A stretch of 64,000 nt of DNA from Escherichia coli (GTDB lineage Bacteria; Pseudomonadota; Gammaproteobacteria; Enterobacterales; Enterobacteriaceae): assembly GCF_024700885.2 (NCBI RefSeq), contig NZ_CP117016.1; one strand, written 5' to 3'. Shown piece after piece: positions 7,079-16,979 of the stretch. The notes under the pieces are model-generated. The model was given only the letters and a program-made list of their open reading frames with translations, made no database searches and was not told the origin of the DNA. The stretch's first letter is position 1; every line of letters starts with the position of its first letter. The position numbers and the translations under genes are program-made.

Positions 7079-8059
7079 CTAACGTCCTGCTTTTAACAAT
7101 AACCAGATAAACACCGGCGCACCCAACGTTGCGGTGACCACGCCAATAGGCAGCTCTGCGGCAGCTAATGCCAGGCGCGCTACAACATCAGCCAGCAGCA
7201 ATGCGCTCGCCCCTGCCAGCGCGCAGCCGGGAAGTAATACGCGATGATCGGTTAAACCACATAACCGGAGAATATGGGGGATCACCAGACCAATAAAGCC
7301 GATAGCACCCGCCAGCGCCACACTGACGCCAACCATCCAGCCGGTCGCTGCCACCAGCACATTGCGCCAGAACCACAGGGGTAAACCCAGTTGCCGCGCC
7401 GAGATCTCGCCAAGTGCTAACATATTCATCGATCTGGACTGACAACAGATCCACAACAACACGGGGATCAATGCCAGCATCAGCCAGCTTTGCCGCCAGT
7501 CTACGCCGCCAAAACCGCCCATCATCCAGTACATCAGCTGACGTAAATCAACAGAGGTGGAAAAGTAGATAGCCCACGTCATTAGTGCGCTACAGATAAT
7601 CCCTAATGCAACGCCAGCCAGCAATAACCGACTGGTCGAAAGATGACGACGGGCGAAACGTAAGAGTATTAAAGTGATGATAAGCGCGCCAGCAATCGCA
7701 CACAGCCCCAGCGCCCAGTTGGGGAGTTGCCCTTGCCCAAGCAATACCGCGGCGATAAGCCCCACGCCTGCGCCATTAGAGACGCCAAGTAGTCCAGGTT
7801 CTGCCAGAGGATTTTCAAATAACGCCTGCATTACAGCGCCGGATATAGCCAACGCCGCACCAACCAGCAATACAGCCAGCGTACGTGGCAGGCGAATTTG
7901 CCAGACGAACAGTTCGCCACGAGGAGTAAACCAGTCACCTGGCGAGATCCATTGTTCACCGGCGCAAAGGCTTAAGAGAAGCGCCAGCAGCATCAAAACT
8001 GACAGACATAATAACCAGCGAATATTTTGTCGCTGTTGTTGGCGGGCAAGTGTCAGCAT
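7079..8059 (-). CDS. btuC: Vitamin B12 ABC transporter permease
   Basis: 326-aa polytopic membrane ORF recognised as BtuC. Confidence 0.9.
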
Positions 8060-8267: not shown

Positions 8268-8708
8268 TTACTTAATAACAGTAACCACAGCCACAAGCAC
8301 GGCCATCGCAGACAGGACAATACCTGTGAGTAACCAAGTCTGATTTGCAAATGATTTCTGAAGTTCAGTACGATGCTCAGCCATCTCAACTTTCAGAGAC
8401 TGGCGTAAATCAGCCATCTCAGACTTCAGGGATTGGCGAGATTCTGCCATCTCAAGCCTCAACCCTTCGCGAATCTCCAGTACATCAGATTTGGTAGCAA
8501 AGGATTCGCTTCTTGTGGTGAGAGTAATCAGGTTGTTTTTGATTTCAGTCACATCACTTTCCAGGCAACTGACCCGCCGTTCAAGGTCGTCATTCATGCC
8601 ATCACCTCCATCATTACCACTTCCTGTTACTTGGTTGTTGGATACATTATAGGCATTCTCTTTCTTTTTTCTGAACCGCGAAATATGTGCAACATTCTCT
8701 GCCATCAC
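8268..8708 (-). CDS. Prophage cargo: coiled-coil protein with C-terminal transmembrane anchor and three 11-residue tandem repeats
   Basis: 146-aa ORF (possibly shorter from an internal Met); EMAESRQSLKS/EMADLRQSLKV/EMAEHRTELQK repeats then hydrophobic tail WLLTGIVLSAMAVLVAVVTVIK; ATGA overlap with upstream gene. Confidence 0.55.
   Translation of the reverse strand: MMAENVAHISRFRKKKENAYNVSNNQVTGSGNDGGDGMNDDLERRVSCLESDVTEIKNNLITLTTRSESFATKSDVLEIREGLRLEMAESRQSLKSEMADLRQSLKVEMAEHRTELQKSFANQTWLLTGIVLSAMAVLVAVVTVIK
8378..8476. repeat. Three tandem 33-bp repeats inside the 8268-8708 gene
   Basis: Copies at 8378-8410, 8411-8443 and 8444-8476, read directly from the sequence. Confidence 0.8.
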
Positions 8709-9067
8709 TTCTCATCACCCTGCTTGCCTACCCAGTTCATAAAGGCCCGGGCCGAGTAACGATGAACAAACCCACATCTGTTACAGGTAAGTCGGAATTC
8801 ATAGTTATGGATATTTTCCCGATCATGTCCCTCATATCCCGGATACCCAGTAAATGGACCGATGTAATCAAGCATAACAAAAGTGCCTAAATCACACTCC
8901 TCAGCAGTTTTCGGCTCAGGCCCCACCTCAACAATATTCGTCAAATACATGTACATATCCGTATCGCCACACGACAAACATTTTTCATTCGTAGACGACT
9001 CATTGAGAAAACGCGCAAAATTATCGAGCGTTGCCATTCTTTTAAGCTCATCTAAATGAAACTTCAC
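8705..9067 (-). CDS. Prophage cargo: Cys-rich hypothetical protein (CLSCGD...CNRCG)
   Basis: 120-aa ORF starting 3 nt after the int stop, same strand, so likely co-transcribed with C-int. Confidence 0.5.
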   Translation of the reverse strand: MKFHLDELKRMATLDNFARFLNESSTNEKCLSCGDTDMYMYLTNIVEVGPEPKTAEECDLGTFVMLDYIGPFTGYPGYEGHDRENIHNYEFRLTCNRCGFVHRYSARAFMNWVGKQGDEK

Positions 9068-9069
9068 TC

Positions 9070-10047
9070 TTAAGCACCTCCTAGTGGATTAAACCTCACC
9101 GCATCCTGCAGGTAATCCGGCGCAAGATGGGCATAAATCATCGTTGTCTGAATCTTTGCGTGCCCCAGAATTTTCTGGAGCGTGAGAATATTGCCACCGT
9201 TCATCATGAAATGACTGGCGAAGGTGTGGCGCAGCGCATGAACAGCCTGGCCGTCAGGAACATCAGGTGCGACCGTTTTGATGACATCGCGAACCAATGA
9301 ATAATCCAGCGTCGGAAACACCAGTTTCCCGCCCCGTTTTTTGATCTTTTCAAACAGGCTTTCAGAAATAGGAACGGTACGGTTTTTGCTGTTCTTCGTT
9401 TTTGAAAAAGTGATTCGACAATGAAGAACACGGCGCTGCTCCAGTACCGCTACCTCGCCCCATCGCGCCCCGGTCGACAGAAGGATTTCGACAGCCAGCC
9501 GTTCATCGGGATTTTCAGCCAGTGCATCCAGCAACTGAACACATTCAGACTTACTCAGATATCCCATTTCGCGCTCGTTAACCTTCATTCCTTTAAGGCC
9601 TTGAACGGGGTTATCGTTAAGAAAATGGCCGGATGAGATGAGTGCGGTAAACATCGCGCTTAACGCCCCAATCTCTCGATTTATGGTGCTGGGCTGTATC
9701 CCCTGCTCTATCCTGGACACACGTAGCTCGGTGAGCATCGTTGTATTAAGTCTATGCACGCACGGGTCATCCATTGCCTCACTCAAGCGCAGCAATTTAA
9801 GGCGCGTGTTATGCCCTGACTTCATTAGCTGGCCGTGGTATTTCCACCACAAGTCAATAAGCACTGACAGAGGACGGCGATCAATAGAGTTTCCTTTCCA
9901 CTCATTGTTATGCTGTTGCGCCAGCACCCACCGCTCATATAAAACTGCATCCGATTTCGTTTTAAATTTTTTGCGAATGCGTTTGCCTTTACGCCCCTCA
10001 GGGCGCATGTCAAGAAGATACCCTCCCGGAATTGATTTTATGCTCAT
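9070..10047 (-). CDS. int: P2-type tyrosine integrase
   Basis: Recognised similarity to P2 Int, including ...LSTGARWGE..., HALRHTFASHF and the C-terminal catalytic Tyr region; start set at MSIKS, the track ORF starts at an upstream GTG. Confidence 0.85.
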   Translation of the reverse strand: MSIKSIPGGYLLDMRPEGRKGKRIRKKFKTKSDAVLYERWVLAQQHNNEWKGNSIDRRPLSVLIDLWWKYHGQLMKSGHNTRLKLLRLSEAMDDPCVHRLNTTMLTELRVSRIEQGIQPSTINREIGALSAMFTALISSGHFLNDNPVQGLKGMKVNEREMGYLSKSECVQLLDALAENPDERLAVEILLSTGARWGEVAVLEQRRVLHCRITFSKTKNSKNRTVPISESLFEKIKKRGGKLVFPTLDYSLVRDVIKTVAPDVPDGQAVHALRHTFASHFMMNGGNILTLQKILGHAKIQTTMIYAHLAPDYLQDAVRFNPLGGA

Positions 10048-10096: not shown

Positions 10097-10405
10097 TTAG
10101 CCGGGCTGTGTACCAGTCTTGCGGGGCTTTTGAGAAGACGATGTGTTTTCTGGCCCATCAGGGGAGAGAGAGGGACTGATCTGCCCAGCAGCCTCATTCG
10201 TTTTTCCTGTCATAAGCCAATTCATGTACTTAAAAAAGCGAGGGTGATTAACAATCTTGATAAGCACTTCGCCCCCTATGTTTTCAATCCGCCCCGTTTC
10301 ATAACGACGCAAAGTGCCGATAGGCACATCAATCAGGCCGCAAAATTCTTCGCGCGTTAAATCCTCTGATTCACGAATCACTCTAATTTTTTCACCGATA
10401 AGCAT
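10097..10405 (-). CDS. Immunity repressor, P2 C-like HTH protein
   Basis: About 102 aa from MLIGEKI; resembles P2 C (GxPxGTLxxYExG HTH region); divergent from the early operon. Confidence 0.75.
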   Translation of the reverse strand: MLIGEKIRVIRESEDLTREEFCGLIDVPIGTLRRYETGRIENIGGEVLIKIVNHPRFFKYMNWLMTGKTNEAAGQISPSLSPDGPENTSSSQKPRKTGTQPG

Positions 10406-10410
10406 TGACA

Positions 10411-10462
10411 GTGTTCCTATAAGTACACTAAGCTTGCGCACAAGGTGTACTTATAAGTACAC
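10411..10462. promoter_or_regulatory. Putative operator of the immunity switch: 18-bp perfect palindrome plus imperfect upstream copy
   Basis: gtgtacttataagtacac at 10445-10462 is a perfect inverted repeat; gtgttcctataagtacac at 10411-10428 is a degenerate copy; between divergent C and cox-position genes. Confidence 0.5.
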
Positions 10463-10501
10463 CAAGTCACAAACAACCACAGATAGCGCAGGTTATCACA
10501 C

Positions 10502-10780
10502 ATGGCAAAAGTCCTGAACACACACGAACAGGCAGACTTTGAGCGTTTAGCAGCGTTCTATCCCTACCGCGATGAGCATGGGTTACCAGTACTTGAAGAA
10601 AGCCTGAAAGATTACGCAAAGCGTACCAACCAAGCTGTTAACACAGTGAAAAGACAGGCTGACAGAGGTTCAATTCCCATCAACCAAGATGAAAAGAACT
10701 CAAGACGCACAGTAAATCTTTTCGCTCTTTTCCTGAAAACAATCAGGAGCGCAGAGAAATACGTGCAGATGACAAAATAA
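10502..10780 (+). CDS. First early-operon gene in the cox/apl position (putative excisionase/early regulator)
   Basis: 92-aa ORF divergent from C; assignment is positional, sequence similarity to P2 Cox not established. Confidence 0.45.
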   Translation: MAKVLNTHEQADFERLAAFYPYRDEHGLPVLEESLKDYAKRTNQAVNTVKRQADRGSIPINQDEKNSRRTVNLFALFLKTIRSAEKYVQMTK

Positions 10781-11143: not shown

Positions 11144-11422
11144 ATGACCAAAGAGCATGCACAAGGTGTATTTATCCGTTTTATTGATTTTCGCGGTGAA
11201 CTGTTATTGCGCGCATCAGCTATTGATGGAGTTGTCCCATCAGAAAAAAATGCAGCTACTTACGTTTATCTGAACGGCACGCGCCTGACCGTAGAACTTC
11301 CGTACCAGACTGTACACGGAATCATTAGCGAAGCTGAAAAAGCGCGCCAGGCTAATGGCAATGAACCCTATATCGAAATTATTTGCATGGATTCAGAAGC
11401 TGAAATCCAGAAAGCAGATTAA
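11144..11422 (+). CDS. Prophage early-region hypothetical protein
   Basis: ORF from MTKEHAQG preceded by aggtg; the track ORF starts further upstream. Confidence 0.45.
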   Translation: MTKEHAQGVFIRFIDFRGELLLRASAIDGVVPSEKNAATYVYLNGTRLTVELPYQTVHGIISEAEKARQANGNEPYIEIICMDSEAEIQKAD

Positions 11423-15703: not shown

Positions 15704-16663
15704 ATGAAAATTTGTATCGACGACGGCTCCACCAACATCAAGCTGGCATGGACTGAGAACGGCGAACGCCGCAACGCCATCAGCCCGAACAGCTTCAAGT
15801 CGGAATGGTCTGCGCCGTTCGGTGGCACGCAGCCCGCGAACTACATGCTTGATGGCGTGCGCTATGGTTTTGATCCGGTCAGCGATCGCTTTATCCAGAC
15901 GACCGACACACAATACCAGTACAGCGATGTGAATGTCATTGCCATTCATCACGCGCTGGTCAAATCAGGCATCACGCCACAGGAGGTGGATGTGGTTGTC
16001 ACCCTGCCACTGAGCGAGTATTTCGACACAAACGCACAGCCGGACATGGCCAACATCAACCGCAAAAAAGCAAACGTTATGCGCCCGGTGGAATACCAGA
16101 ACGGCGAAGCATTCACTATCCGTAATGTACGGGTTATGCCTGAATCCATTCCGGCTGGCTTTAAAGCACTGGCTGACATGAGTCCGTTTGAATCCCTGCT
16201 GATTGTGGATTTAGGTGGAACCACGCTGGATGTGGCAAAGGTTCAGGGACAACTGGCAGGTATCAGCCAGGTGTTTTGCGATCCACACGTAGGCGTTTCC
16301 CTGATGGCCGATGCAGTACTGTCGGTGATGGCCACTAACGGTATGCGTACCAGTCACCACATCGCCAATACCATTATCGAACATCGCCATGATGAAGCCT
16401 GGCTGCGCCAGCACATCCACAATGACGCGCATTACGCCAGCCTGATGGCGGTTATTCGTGAAAAGGAAGAAACACTGAAACAACGCGTGATCCGCGCGCT
16501 GGCGGGTTTTTCGGGTTACGGGCGGGTGATGGTTGTCGGTGGCGGGGCGGAGATTGTGGCACCCGCTATCCGCGAAGCCTGCGGAGTTAATGCGACTTTC
16601 ATCGCGGACGGGGTGCCACAGTTTGCTCTGGTTAATGGGCTGTACGCAATGGACAAGGAGTAA
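15704..16663 (+). CDS. ParM/StbA-like actin-family segregation ATPase
   Basis: 319 aa; IDDGSTNIKL, YSDVNVIAIHHAL, VMPESIPAG, LIVDLGGTTLD, VMVVGGGAE, LVNGLY match remembered R1 ParM blocks. Confidence 0.8.
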   Translation: MKICIDDGSTNIKLAWTENGERRNAISPNSFKSEWSAPFGGTQPANYMLDGVRYGFDPVSDRFIQTTDTQYQYSDVNVIAIHHALVKSGITPQEVDVVVTLPLSEYFDTNAQPDMANINRKKANVMRPVEYQNGEAFTIRNVRVMPESIPAGFKALADMSPFESLLIVDLGGTTLDVAKVQGQLAGISQVFCDPHVGVSLMADAVLSVMATNGMRTSHHIANTIIEHRHDEAWLRQHIHNDAHYASLMAVIREKEETLKQRVIRALAGFSGYGRVMVVGGGAEIVAPAIREACGVNATFIADGVPQFALVNGLYAMDKE

Positions 16664-16667
16664 ACCA

Positions 16668-16979
16668 ATGACGACACCAACCAGGCGGATAAGTTTCTAT
16701 CTGAAGCCTGCGGCCGTCAAGAACGAAAGCGAAGCATGCGCCTGGCTGGACAGCCTTACACCGGAAGCCCGCAAAAGCGGCCAACGCGTGGCTTTTCTGG
16801 CCGGGCTGGCACTTCTGAAAATGAATCCGGCAGAGGCTTACCGACTGGCTGCATGGGCTGACGATGAGGCGTTATCAGTGACACAAACCAGGACAGAACG
16901 CCCCCTGTCACAGCCAGTACCAACCGCACAGATAACCAGTCAGATGGCCGGAAATATCAGGGCGTTATTTCCTGAATAA
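16668..16979 (+). CDS. ParR/StbB-like centromere-binding adaptor
   Basis: RRISFYLKP...AFLAGLAL...IRALFP resembles R1 ParR; immediately downstream of parM-like gene. Confidence 0.65.
   Translation: MTTPTRRISFYLKPAAVKNESEACAWLDSLTPEARKSGQRVAFLAGLALLKMNPAEAYRLAAWADDEALSVTQTRTERPLSQPVPTAQITSQMAGNIRALFPE

Follow-up and report, generated by a model that had tools for sequence, protein, structure and literature searches.

The C repressors of P2-like phages are cited as a rare case of a symmetric helix-turn-helix (HTH) dimer that acts on non-palindromic direct repeats, and the mechanism has been called puzzling (PMC2995052, PMC4752584). The crystal structure of P2 C is that of a symmetric dimer positioned for two consecutive major grooves, and the protein superimposes on P22 c2 bound to a palindromic operator and was modelled on that operator (PMC2995052). 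For the characterized members of the family, namely P2, WPhi, and P2 Hy dis, the sites bound have been described as non-palindromic direct repeats. Here, a prophage switch of the P2 type is examined in which both putative repressor sites, O1 and O2, are palindromic, raising the questions of whether these sites belong to the C-type repressor, whether each is read by both subunits of one dimer, and whether the locus differs from P2 in binding geometry or in immunity. The DNA analyzed (the window) is a stretch of 64,000 nucleotides from an Escherichia coli contig (NZ_CP117016.1). The evidence presented below makes it very probable that O1 and O2 are operators of the C-type repressor, each palindromic unit being bound by one symmetric dimer, with the two dimers probably cooperating and shutting off the early promoter, Pe.

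The window carries a P2-like prophage of approximately 34 kb (approximately 8.1 to 42.4 kb of the window; 8100-42400) that is flanked by btuC and ihfA and that encodes P2-type head, tail, lysis, ogr, and replication-endonuclease genes (Table 1). An 801-bp switch query was 100% identical to E. coli strain E-1246 and 98.8% identical to EPEC E2348/69, and a megablast of the switch against a phage collection returned no match; the element is known only as a prophage. The gene order, with a cox-like early gene on the strand opposite to int and C, is that of the P2-type lysis-lysogeny switch, and a gene encoding a DUF4761 protein comes after the cox-like gene. The repressor matches the Pfam families HTH_3 and HTH_31 as well as phrog_147 (E = 5.5e-31), and it aligns over its full length (residues 3-98, E = 7e-16) with the P2 C structures (PDB 2XCJ/2L49). 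RefSeq annotates it at the same coordinates, the database names for the protein being generic. Its identity is 47% to P2 C, 38% to WPhi C, and 36% to the C protein of the UTI89 prophage. An alternative start for C, a GTG at 10441 that would yield a 114-aa open reading frame, was rejected because homologs and the RefSeq annotation begin at the ATG at 10405. The product of the first early gene also matches phrog_575, 'Cox-like excisionase and repressor', at a weaker E of 1e-7; a Pfam search of this protein returned no match, and its RefSeq homologs carry the name 'DNA-binding protein'. Its assignment as Cox thus follows from the weak phrog_575 match together with its position, and it is presumed to be the lytic repressor and excision factor.

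Table 1. Features of the switch, of the prophage around it (window coordinates), and the O2 sites of three other palindromic types.
Feature	Position	Strand	Remarks
Host btuC	7079-8059		adjoins the prophage end
Two small cargo genes	8268-9067		between btuC and int
Phage integrase gene	9070-10047	minus	Pfam Int_N and Phage_integrase; RefSeq annotation; downstream of C, lysogenic operon
C-type immunity repressor gene	10097-10405	minus	102 aa; HTH domain approximately residues 1-64, then C-terminal tail
Candidate Pe -35, TTGACA	10405-10410	plus	first T pairs with the A of the C start codon
O1, degenerate copy, GTGTTCCTATAAGTACAC	10411-10428		16/18 match to the O2 18-mer; fills the 18-nt Pe spacer
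Candidate Pe -10, TAAGCT	10429-10434	plus	predicted start near 10440-10442
O2, perfect 20-bp palindrome, GGTGTACTTATAAGTACACC	10444-10463		core GTAC-N6-GTAC; approximately +3 to +23 of the predicted Pe transcript
Right part of the switch	10464-10501		presumed Pc, Cox-binding sites, and cox ribosome-binding site
Cox-like DNA-binding protein gene	10502-10780	plus	92 aa; first early gene; phrog_11533, E = 1e-54
Replication endonuclease gene	12760/12787-15627		955 aa
ParM-like and partition genes	15704-16979		carried by the prophage
Hok/Gef toxin gene	42075-42215		right end of the prophage
O2 of the O104:H4-type prophage, AAGTCGCCTATAGACGACTT			9/10 dyad; degenerate O1 32-34 bp upstream
O2 of UTI89 prophage PhiECO5, TCTTCACCACATGGTGAAGA			published tentative class IX; 9/10 dyad; degenerate O1 32-34 bp upstream
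O2 of the KC618326 prophage, TGGAACCTATATAGGTTCCA	within 1055-1215 of locus L006		10/10 dyad, perfect over 20 bp; degenerate O1 34 bp upstream

A preliminary description of this locus had reported an 18-bp perfect palindrome at 10445-10462 and a degenerate copy of it upstream at 10411-10428. Both are present, the copy with 2 mismatches, and the 18-mer (GTGTACTTATAAGTACAC) lies within a full palindrome of 20 bp, O2. Counted as dyad pairs, O2 is symmetric at 10/10 and O1 at 7/9 when taken as an 18-mer or 8/10 when taken as a 20-mer, so that the repeat unit, unlike that of a P2 C-style binder, does not lack dyad symmetry. The two copies can also be taken as a direct repeat of 22 nt (10411-10432 and 10445-10466) whose starts are 34 bp apart. 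The pair is non-random: a search of both strands of the 64 kb with up to 3 mismatches found only O1 and O2, as compared to no match in 100 dinucleotide-preserving shuffles, and a 10/10 dyad arose in 0 of 2000 shuffles of the local 85 nt (p < 0.0005). A further GTAC-N6-GTAC at 11302-11315 was considered as a distal operator and rejected, since such occurrences are at chance level (at least two matches in 7 of 100 shuffles).

The preliminary description had also placed the sites between the divergent repressor gene and the first early gene. The genes are indeed divergent, with 96 bp between C and cox, but the promoters of this phage family point towards each other. The DNA between the genes is not neutral spacer, in that O1 lies inside the candidate early promoter, the -35 element of which overlaps the repressor start codon. 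A consensus promoter and terminator scan of 10200-10700 called nothing, and the absence of a sigma-70 call at Pe is attributable to its -10 hexamer, which matches at 3/6 positions; Pe is therefore assigned by homology only. The TTGACA is invariant across heteroimmune relatives and is positionally homologous both to the annotated Pe -35 of P2, which likewise overlaps the C start, and to that of WPhi. At the same distance from TTGACA, relatives carry TAAATT, TATATT, TATTCT, or TAAGAT, WPhi carries TATATT, and P2 carries TAGTAT (annotated), such that a TAnnnT pattern is kept in all compared relatives while the flanking operator blocks change. Constant TTGACA and TAnnnT elements with variable sequence between and after them are the pattern expected of promoter elements interleaved with specificity-determining operators.

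The two palindromes are positionally homologous to mapped operators. The closest match is WPhi (immunity class III), the operator sites of which have been experimentally defined (PMC1904268, PMC1904263). As in the window, the WPhi repressor is a small HTH protein of the C type with a start codon next to or overlapping the TTGACA of Pe, and O1 is located in the -35/-10 spacer and O2 past the start site, with 34 bp between their centres; measured from the -35 element, the two sites have identical offsets (+6 and +40) in both. They differ in that the C-cox intergenic region of WPhi is 152 bp long and that its repeat is a 10-bp sequence, TATTGGTGAC, described as non-palindromic, rather than an 18-20 bp palindrome; O1 of WPhi lies in a weak 6/8 dyad and its O2 in none. 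P2 shares the int-C/cox order, the overlap of the Pe -35 with the C start, and the presence of two sites flanking the -10, and its GenBank record gives TTGACA over the C start, O1 (GTTTAGAT) in the spacer, the -10 element, and O2 22 bp after O1. O1 and O2 of the window flank TAAGCT in the same manner as the two C sites flank the Pe -10 in a P2-type switch, the binding of C being putative here. Unlike the window, P2 has 8-bp direct repeats spaced by 22 bp that are without a significant dyad, and P2 C cannot bind a single site (PMC1904263). The statement in the preliminary description that P2 C uses direct-repeat operators is in agreement with the literature (PMC1904268, PMC2995052).

The degeneracy of O1 coincides with a further signal. 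O1 departs from O2 at T10415 and C10417, and these two changes convert the minus-strand reading from ATAAGTACAC to ATAGGAACAC, creating AGGA. On the minus strand the left half of O1 (10414-10418) reads AGGAA, 9 nt before the C ATG, and is likely the Shine-Dalgarno sequence of C. The left arm of O1, GTGTTCC, is kept in two diverged loci (L044 and L047), and in the O104:H4 type the centre of O1 supplies a GGAG before the C start. We infer from these sequences that O1 has to serve three purposes together, as spacer of the promoter, as operator, and as ribosome-binding site. Past O2, on its right, three immunity types whose Cox proteins are 80-87% identical share the conserved blocks ACAAA..CCACAGA and AGGTTATCACA. 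For Pc, no convincing minus-strand hexamer pair was found with scanner thresholds or by manual inspection, only conserved blocks that co-occur with the type of Cox. The candidates TTGTTT-15-TATAAG (inside O2), TTGCCA-17-TATCTG, and an extended -10, TGTGATAAC, were rejected, none being both good and conserved in relatives.

In an alternative reading, the palindromes act mainly at the level of RNA, on translation or stability, instead of or besides binding repressor. A hairpin of O2 with O1 in the leftward C leader would hide the Shine-Dalgarno sequence of C, and O2 would form a 5' hairpin in the early transcript. Folding is compatible with this: in the leftward leader (10484 to 10395, minus strand) O2' pairs with O1' and covers AGGA (-29.3 kcal/mol, z = -3.25), and in the rightward leader O2 forms an 8-bp hairpin (-18.1 kcal/mol, z = -4.8). 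However, any palindrome pair gives such folds, which are therefore not independent evidence. Moreover, O1 lies upstream of the predicted Pe start and would thus be absent from early RNA, and O2 would be part of the C leader only with a Pc sufficiently far to the right. Changes in O1 of L044 and L047 are not compensated in O2, and the homologous positions in P2 and WPhi are protein sites made of non-palindromic repeats that are unable to form such hairpins. Finally, the sites co-vary with the recognition helix of the repressor, as described below. Taken together, a primary role in RNA is quite improbable, although pairing of the palindromes in the C mRNA leader, gating translation of C in addition to their role as operators, is a possibility.

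Natural variants identify the protein to which the sites belong. In a prophage of the O104:H4 type (L001), Cox is 87% identical to that of the window and the C tail (residues 65-102) is 97% identical, as compared to 34% for the HTH domain of C (residues 1-64); in the 06-00048 type (L002), the corresponding values are 80%, 84%, and 45%. Both keep the -35, the pattern of the -10, and the intergenic DNA on the right-hand side, and both are unrelated to the window in sequence exactly at the two operator blocks. The opposite combination is found in an IMG/VR locus (L047), in which C is 70% and Cox only 38% identical and the flanks are unalignable, but which matches the window at 20/20 positions of O2 and 17/18 of O1 and has an identical recognition-helix segment, IGTLRRYETGRIENIGG. 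In L044, where C is 88% and Cox 74% identical, O2 matches at 19/20. Further, a slightly altered helix (IGTLKRYETNRIG...) in two types goes with sites that are related but not the same, with the form GGTRC-N6-GYACC. The sites thus co-vary with the DNA-binding domain of C and not with Cox, a double dissociation which argues that the palindromes are operators of C. The C genes themselves are mosaics (window 10097-10465 versus L001:1548-1915 and L002:1548-1920), and immunity specificity appears to be exchanged as a cassette that comprises the N-terminal domain of C and both operator blocks, the apparent breakpoints falling within the C gene and immediately to the right of O2.

The same comparisons bear on the suggestion that the palindromes are bound not by C but by the Cox-like protein, as lytic repressor or excisionase, or by integrase or a host factor. 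In favour of this, Cox acts in this part of P2-like switches, and O2 is followed 39 bp further right by the start of the cox-like gene. Yet Cox proteins that are 80-87% identical occur with unrelated blocks, and one that is 38% identical occurs with an identical O2. Cox and Apl bind short direct repeats approximately one helical turn apart rather than dyads of 18-20 bp (PMC7498355, PMC3936717), and no further copy of the palindrome is present near the prophage ends, where sites for integrase or Cox would be expected. Binding by any of these proteins in place of C is hardly credible.

If O1 and O2 are operators of C, it can still be asked whether their symmetry matters. One subunit per dimer could read a direct repeat of 8-10 bp, such as TATAAGTACAC, with the other arm a by-product, perhaps of site duplication or of a -10-like element of Pc, TATAAG, at the centre of O2. 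Reading by one subunit is the published model for the family (PMC2995052), O1 and O2 share the right arm and centre (TATAAGTACAC) but not the left arm, O1 has a symmetry of only 7/9, and the centres of several O2 sites are TATA-like. The departures in the left arm of O1 are, however, explained by the overlapping AGGA ribosome-binding site, and the perfect 10/10 dyad of O2 is kept at 20/20 positions across 30% divergence of the repressor (L047). Related immunity types are also informative. In L064 and L070/L071, O1 is GGTGC-N6-GTACC and O2 is GGTAC-N6-GCACC, each being approximately the reverse complement of the other, such that the two units are related by inversion and not by direct repetition, pointing to the dyad unit, rather than the orientation of the repeat, as the feature kept. 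Additionally, L064 and L071 differ by a symmetric double change in O2 (C..G versus T..A). These patterns suggest that selection keeps dyad units. Since significant dyads of unrelated sequence also arose independently in three more immunity types, incidental symmetry is considered unlikely, and the preferred reading remains that both arms of each palindrome are used by the repressor.

The extent of palindromy in the family was assessed in 22 clusters of C HTH domains, obtained from two IMG/VR scans, phage records, and E. coli prophages and representing approximately 21 operator types. A significant dyad (p <= 0.01) was found in 5 of the 22 clusters, which correspond to 4 of the approximately 21 types, and one more cluster was borderline; a general dyad symmetry across the family is thus supported only in part. 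Palindromic units are a recurrent minority state that is concentrated at a spacing of 32-34 bp, and they are neither unique to the window nor universal. The three palindromic types listed with the window in Table 1 (PhiECO5, the O104:H4 type, and KC618326) have the same switch layout as the window, with unrelated half-sites and different recognition helices. Their integration sites also differ from that of the window, that of the UTI89 prophage adjoining dmsA. The P2 clade, in turn, has mostly plain direct repeats approximately 22 bp apart, and the 06-00048 type has no clear direct repeat, inverted repeat, or dyad at the positions of O1 and O2 (e.g., L002:1860-1925).

Two of these types carry features of their own. 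KC618326 was deposited as 'Escherichia phage P2' and does not have P2 immunity, the identity of its C protein to P2 C being 42%. The KC618326 type may be shared by Yersinia phage L-413C and several 'Peduovirus' records, for which the tblastn statistics were identical. In the UTI89 prophage (L004, 3361-3882), the 'Cox family' protein, at 173 aa, is much longer, and the stretch from O2 to cox contains clear tandem direct repeats of 9 bp (AACAAACCA; TTGGTGCGC/TTGTTGCGC) as candidate sites for Cox; repeats of this clarity are absent from the window.

The recurrence of palindromic types allows a wider, tentative reading that falls somewhat short of an even chance, namely that they reveal the binding mode of the whole P2 C family. 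Each so-called half-site would then correspond to a full dimer site, and the sites of P2 and WPhi would be derived ones in which one arm has decayed, possibly because O1 also encodes promoter and ribosome-binding signals. Were the palindromic mode general, it would resolve the question, stated as open in 2010 and again in 2015, of how a symmetric C dimer acts on asymmetric repeats, and it would provide a natural symmetric substrate of 20 bp for a co-crystal.

For the switch of the window itself, the following mechanism is proposed. Symmetric units imply base-specific contacts by both subunits of a dimer, and a dyad of 18-20 bp, with GTAC-N6-GTAC at its core and AT-rich in the middle, has the form of a site for two-subunit reading; one dimer per unit is proposed on this basis. 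One symmetric C dimer would occupy each palindrome, with each of its two HTH motifs reading a GTGTAC/GTAC half-site. That one dimer reads both arms is an extrapolation from the structure, given that P2, WPhi, and P2 Hy dis have been described as direct-repeat binders. Two such dimers, 34 bp or approximately three helical turns apart, would lie on the same face of the DNA, where cooperation between them is probable. C on O1, in the Pe spacer, and on O2, at approximately +3 to +23, would occlude the spacer and the initially transcribed region of Pe. The early operon (the cox-like gene, then the replication genes) would thereby be kept off, maintaining lysogeny and conferring immunity against superinfection by phages of this type. 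Silencing of Pe should also relieve interference by convergent transcription on the leftward C-int transcript, on the analogy of P2 and 186.

The preliminary description had taken the palindromic site to suggest a binding geometry different from that of P2, and this suggestion is not borne out. The layout offsets are those of WPhi, P2 C is already a symmetric dimer, and the two palindrome copies also form a direct repeat, so the overall geometry is not different; only the symmetry of the unit is. The switch is, in this sense, a modest variant with a WPhi-like geometry and with operator units that are full palindromes.

Comparison with other repressors of similar fold places this arrangement among familiar ones. 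434 cI and P22 c2 share the HTH_3 fold of the window repressor and act as symmetric dimers on a dyad with an AT-rich centre that overlaps promoter elements, as is proposed for the window. The operator dyads of 434 and P22 span 14-18 bp. Lambdoid repressors, unlike that of the window, have a separate C-terminal domain for oligomerization and RecA cleavage, and the lambdoid switch uses three adjacent operators that are shared with Cro. The window, in contrast, has a repressor with a single domain and a tail and only two sites 34 bp apart, and its second repressor, Cox, would use other sites. C.Esp1396I binds directly repeated palindromic units as small HTH dimers, one dimer per unit, and forms a tetramer on DNA (PMC2995052). 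Its units are only 15 bp apart centre to centre and it regulates restriction-modification genes, such that the resemblance to the window would be one of mechanism only. Palindromic operators are thus an ordinary kind of switch, found here in a repressor family that is best known for non-palindromic repeats.

With respect to immunity, a class is defined by C proteins that are at least approximately 95% identical and that share the same operator sequence (PMC3448106). By this definition the window repressor is not in class I (P2), class III (WPhi), or class IX (PhiECO5, UTI89), from which it differs both in identity (47%, 38%, and 36%, respectively) and in operators; the 18-mer of the window differs from the WPhi repeat and is unrelated to that of P2. 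The view put forward previously, that the immunity type is distinct from that of P2, is accordingly upheld by both repressor and operator. The comparisons support an uncharacterized immunity specificity of a P2-type switch, set apart from classes I, III, and IX. It should be noted that three more E. coli immunity classes have been proposed from genomes without operator analysis (PMC3448106).

Both sites, at their 34-bp spacing, were found in 38 of 38 readable IMG/VR loci that encode a C protein 96-100% identical to that of the window, and the palindrome is thus not absent from relatives with the same repressor. Of 5426 complete E. coli genomes, 118 carry the operator pair, each of them exactly once. 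This type of prophage is thus present in approximately 2% of complete E. coli genomes, including O157:H7, O145:H28, O55:H7, and EPEC E2348/69. Within the type (38 loci), 1 of 20 positions of O2 is polymorphic versus 6 of 18 in the adjoining 9-bp flanks (p = 0.03), while both operators versus the rest of the intergenic region show no significant difference (3/38 versus 7/58 polymorphic, p = 0.38). Polymorphism lends weak support to constraint, being significant for O2 against its flanks and not in the comparison of the whole region.

In the literature searched, no description of palindromic C operators was found, though there may be an earlier mention. The window switch itself is not known to have been studied before, and its practical value is modest but real. 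It retains the layout of a P2-type switch while, in close relatives as well, being built from perfect palindromes, and it offers an experimental handle on the question of how P2 C binds. In addition, the natural swaps of domain and operators provide a defined set of orthogonal pairs of repressor and operator.

Two further observations concern the genes around the switch. In E. coli RM19259 (NZ_CP046527; locus L003, 1953-3544), which has the same immunity type as the window, the cox-like gene is split by IS1203, an IS3-family element; this disruption is a natural knockout, and the prophage should consequently be locked in lysogeny. Finally, a 2026 survey of P2-like viruses lists a BtuC permease as a phage 'auxiliary metabolic gene' (PMC13100340). 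Prophages of the type found in the window sit directly beside host btuC, and this call may therefore be an artifact of the prophage boundary.
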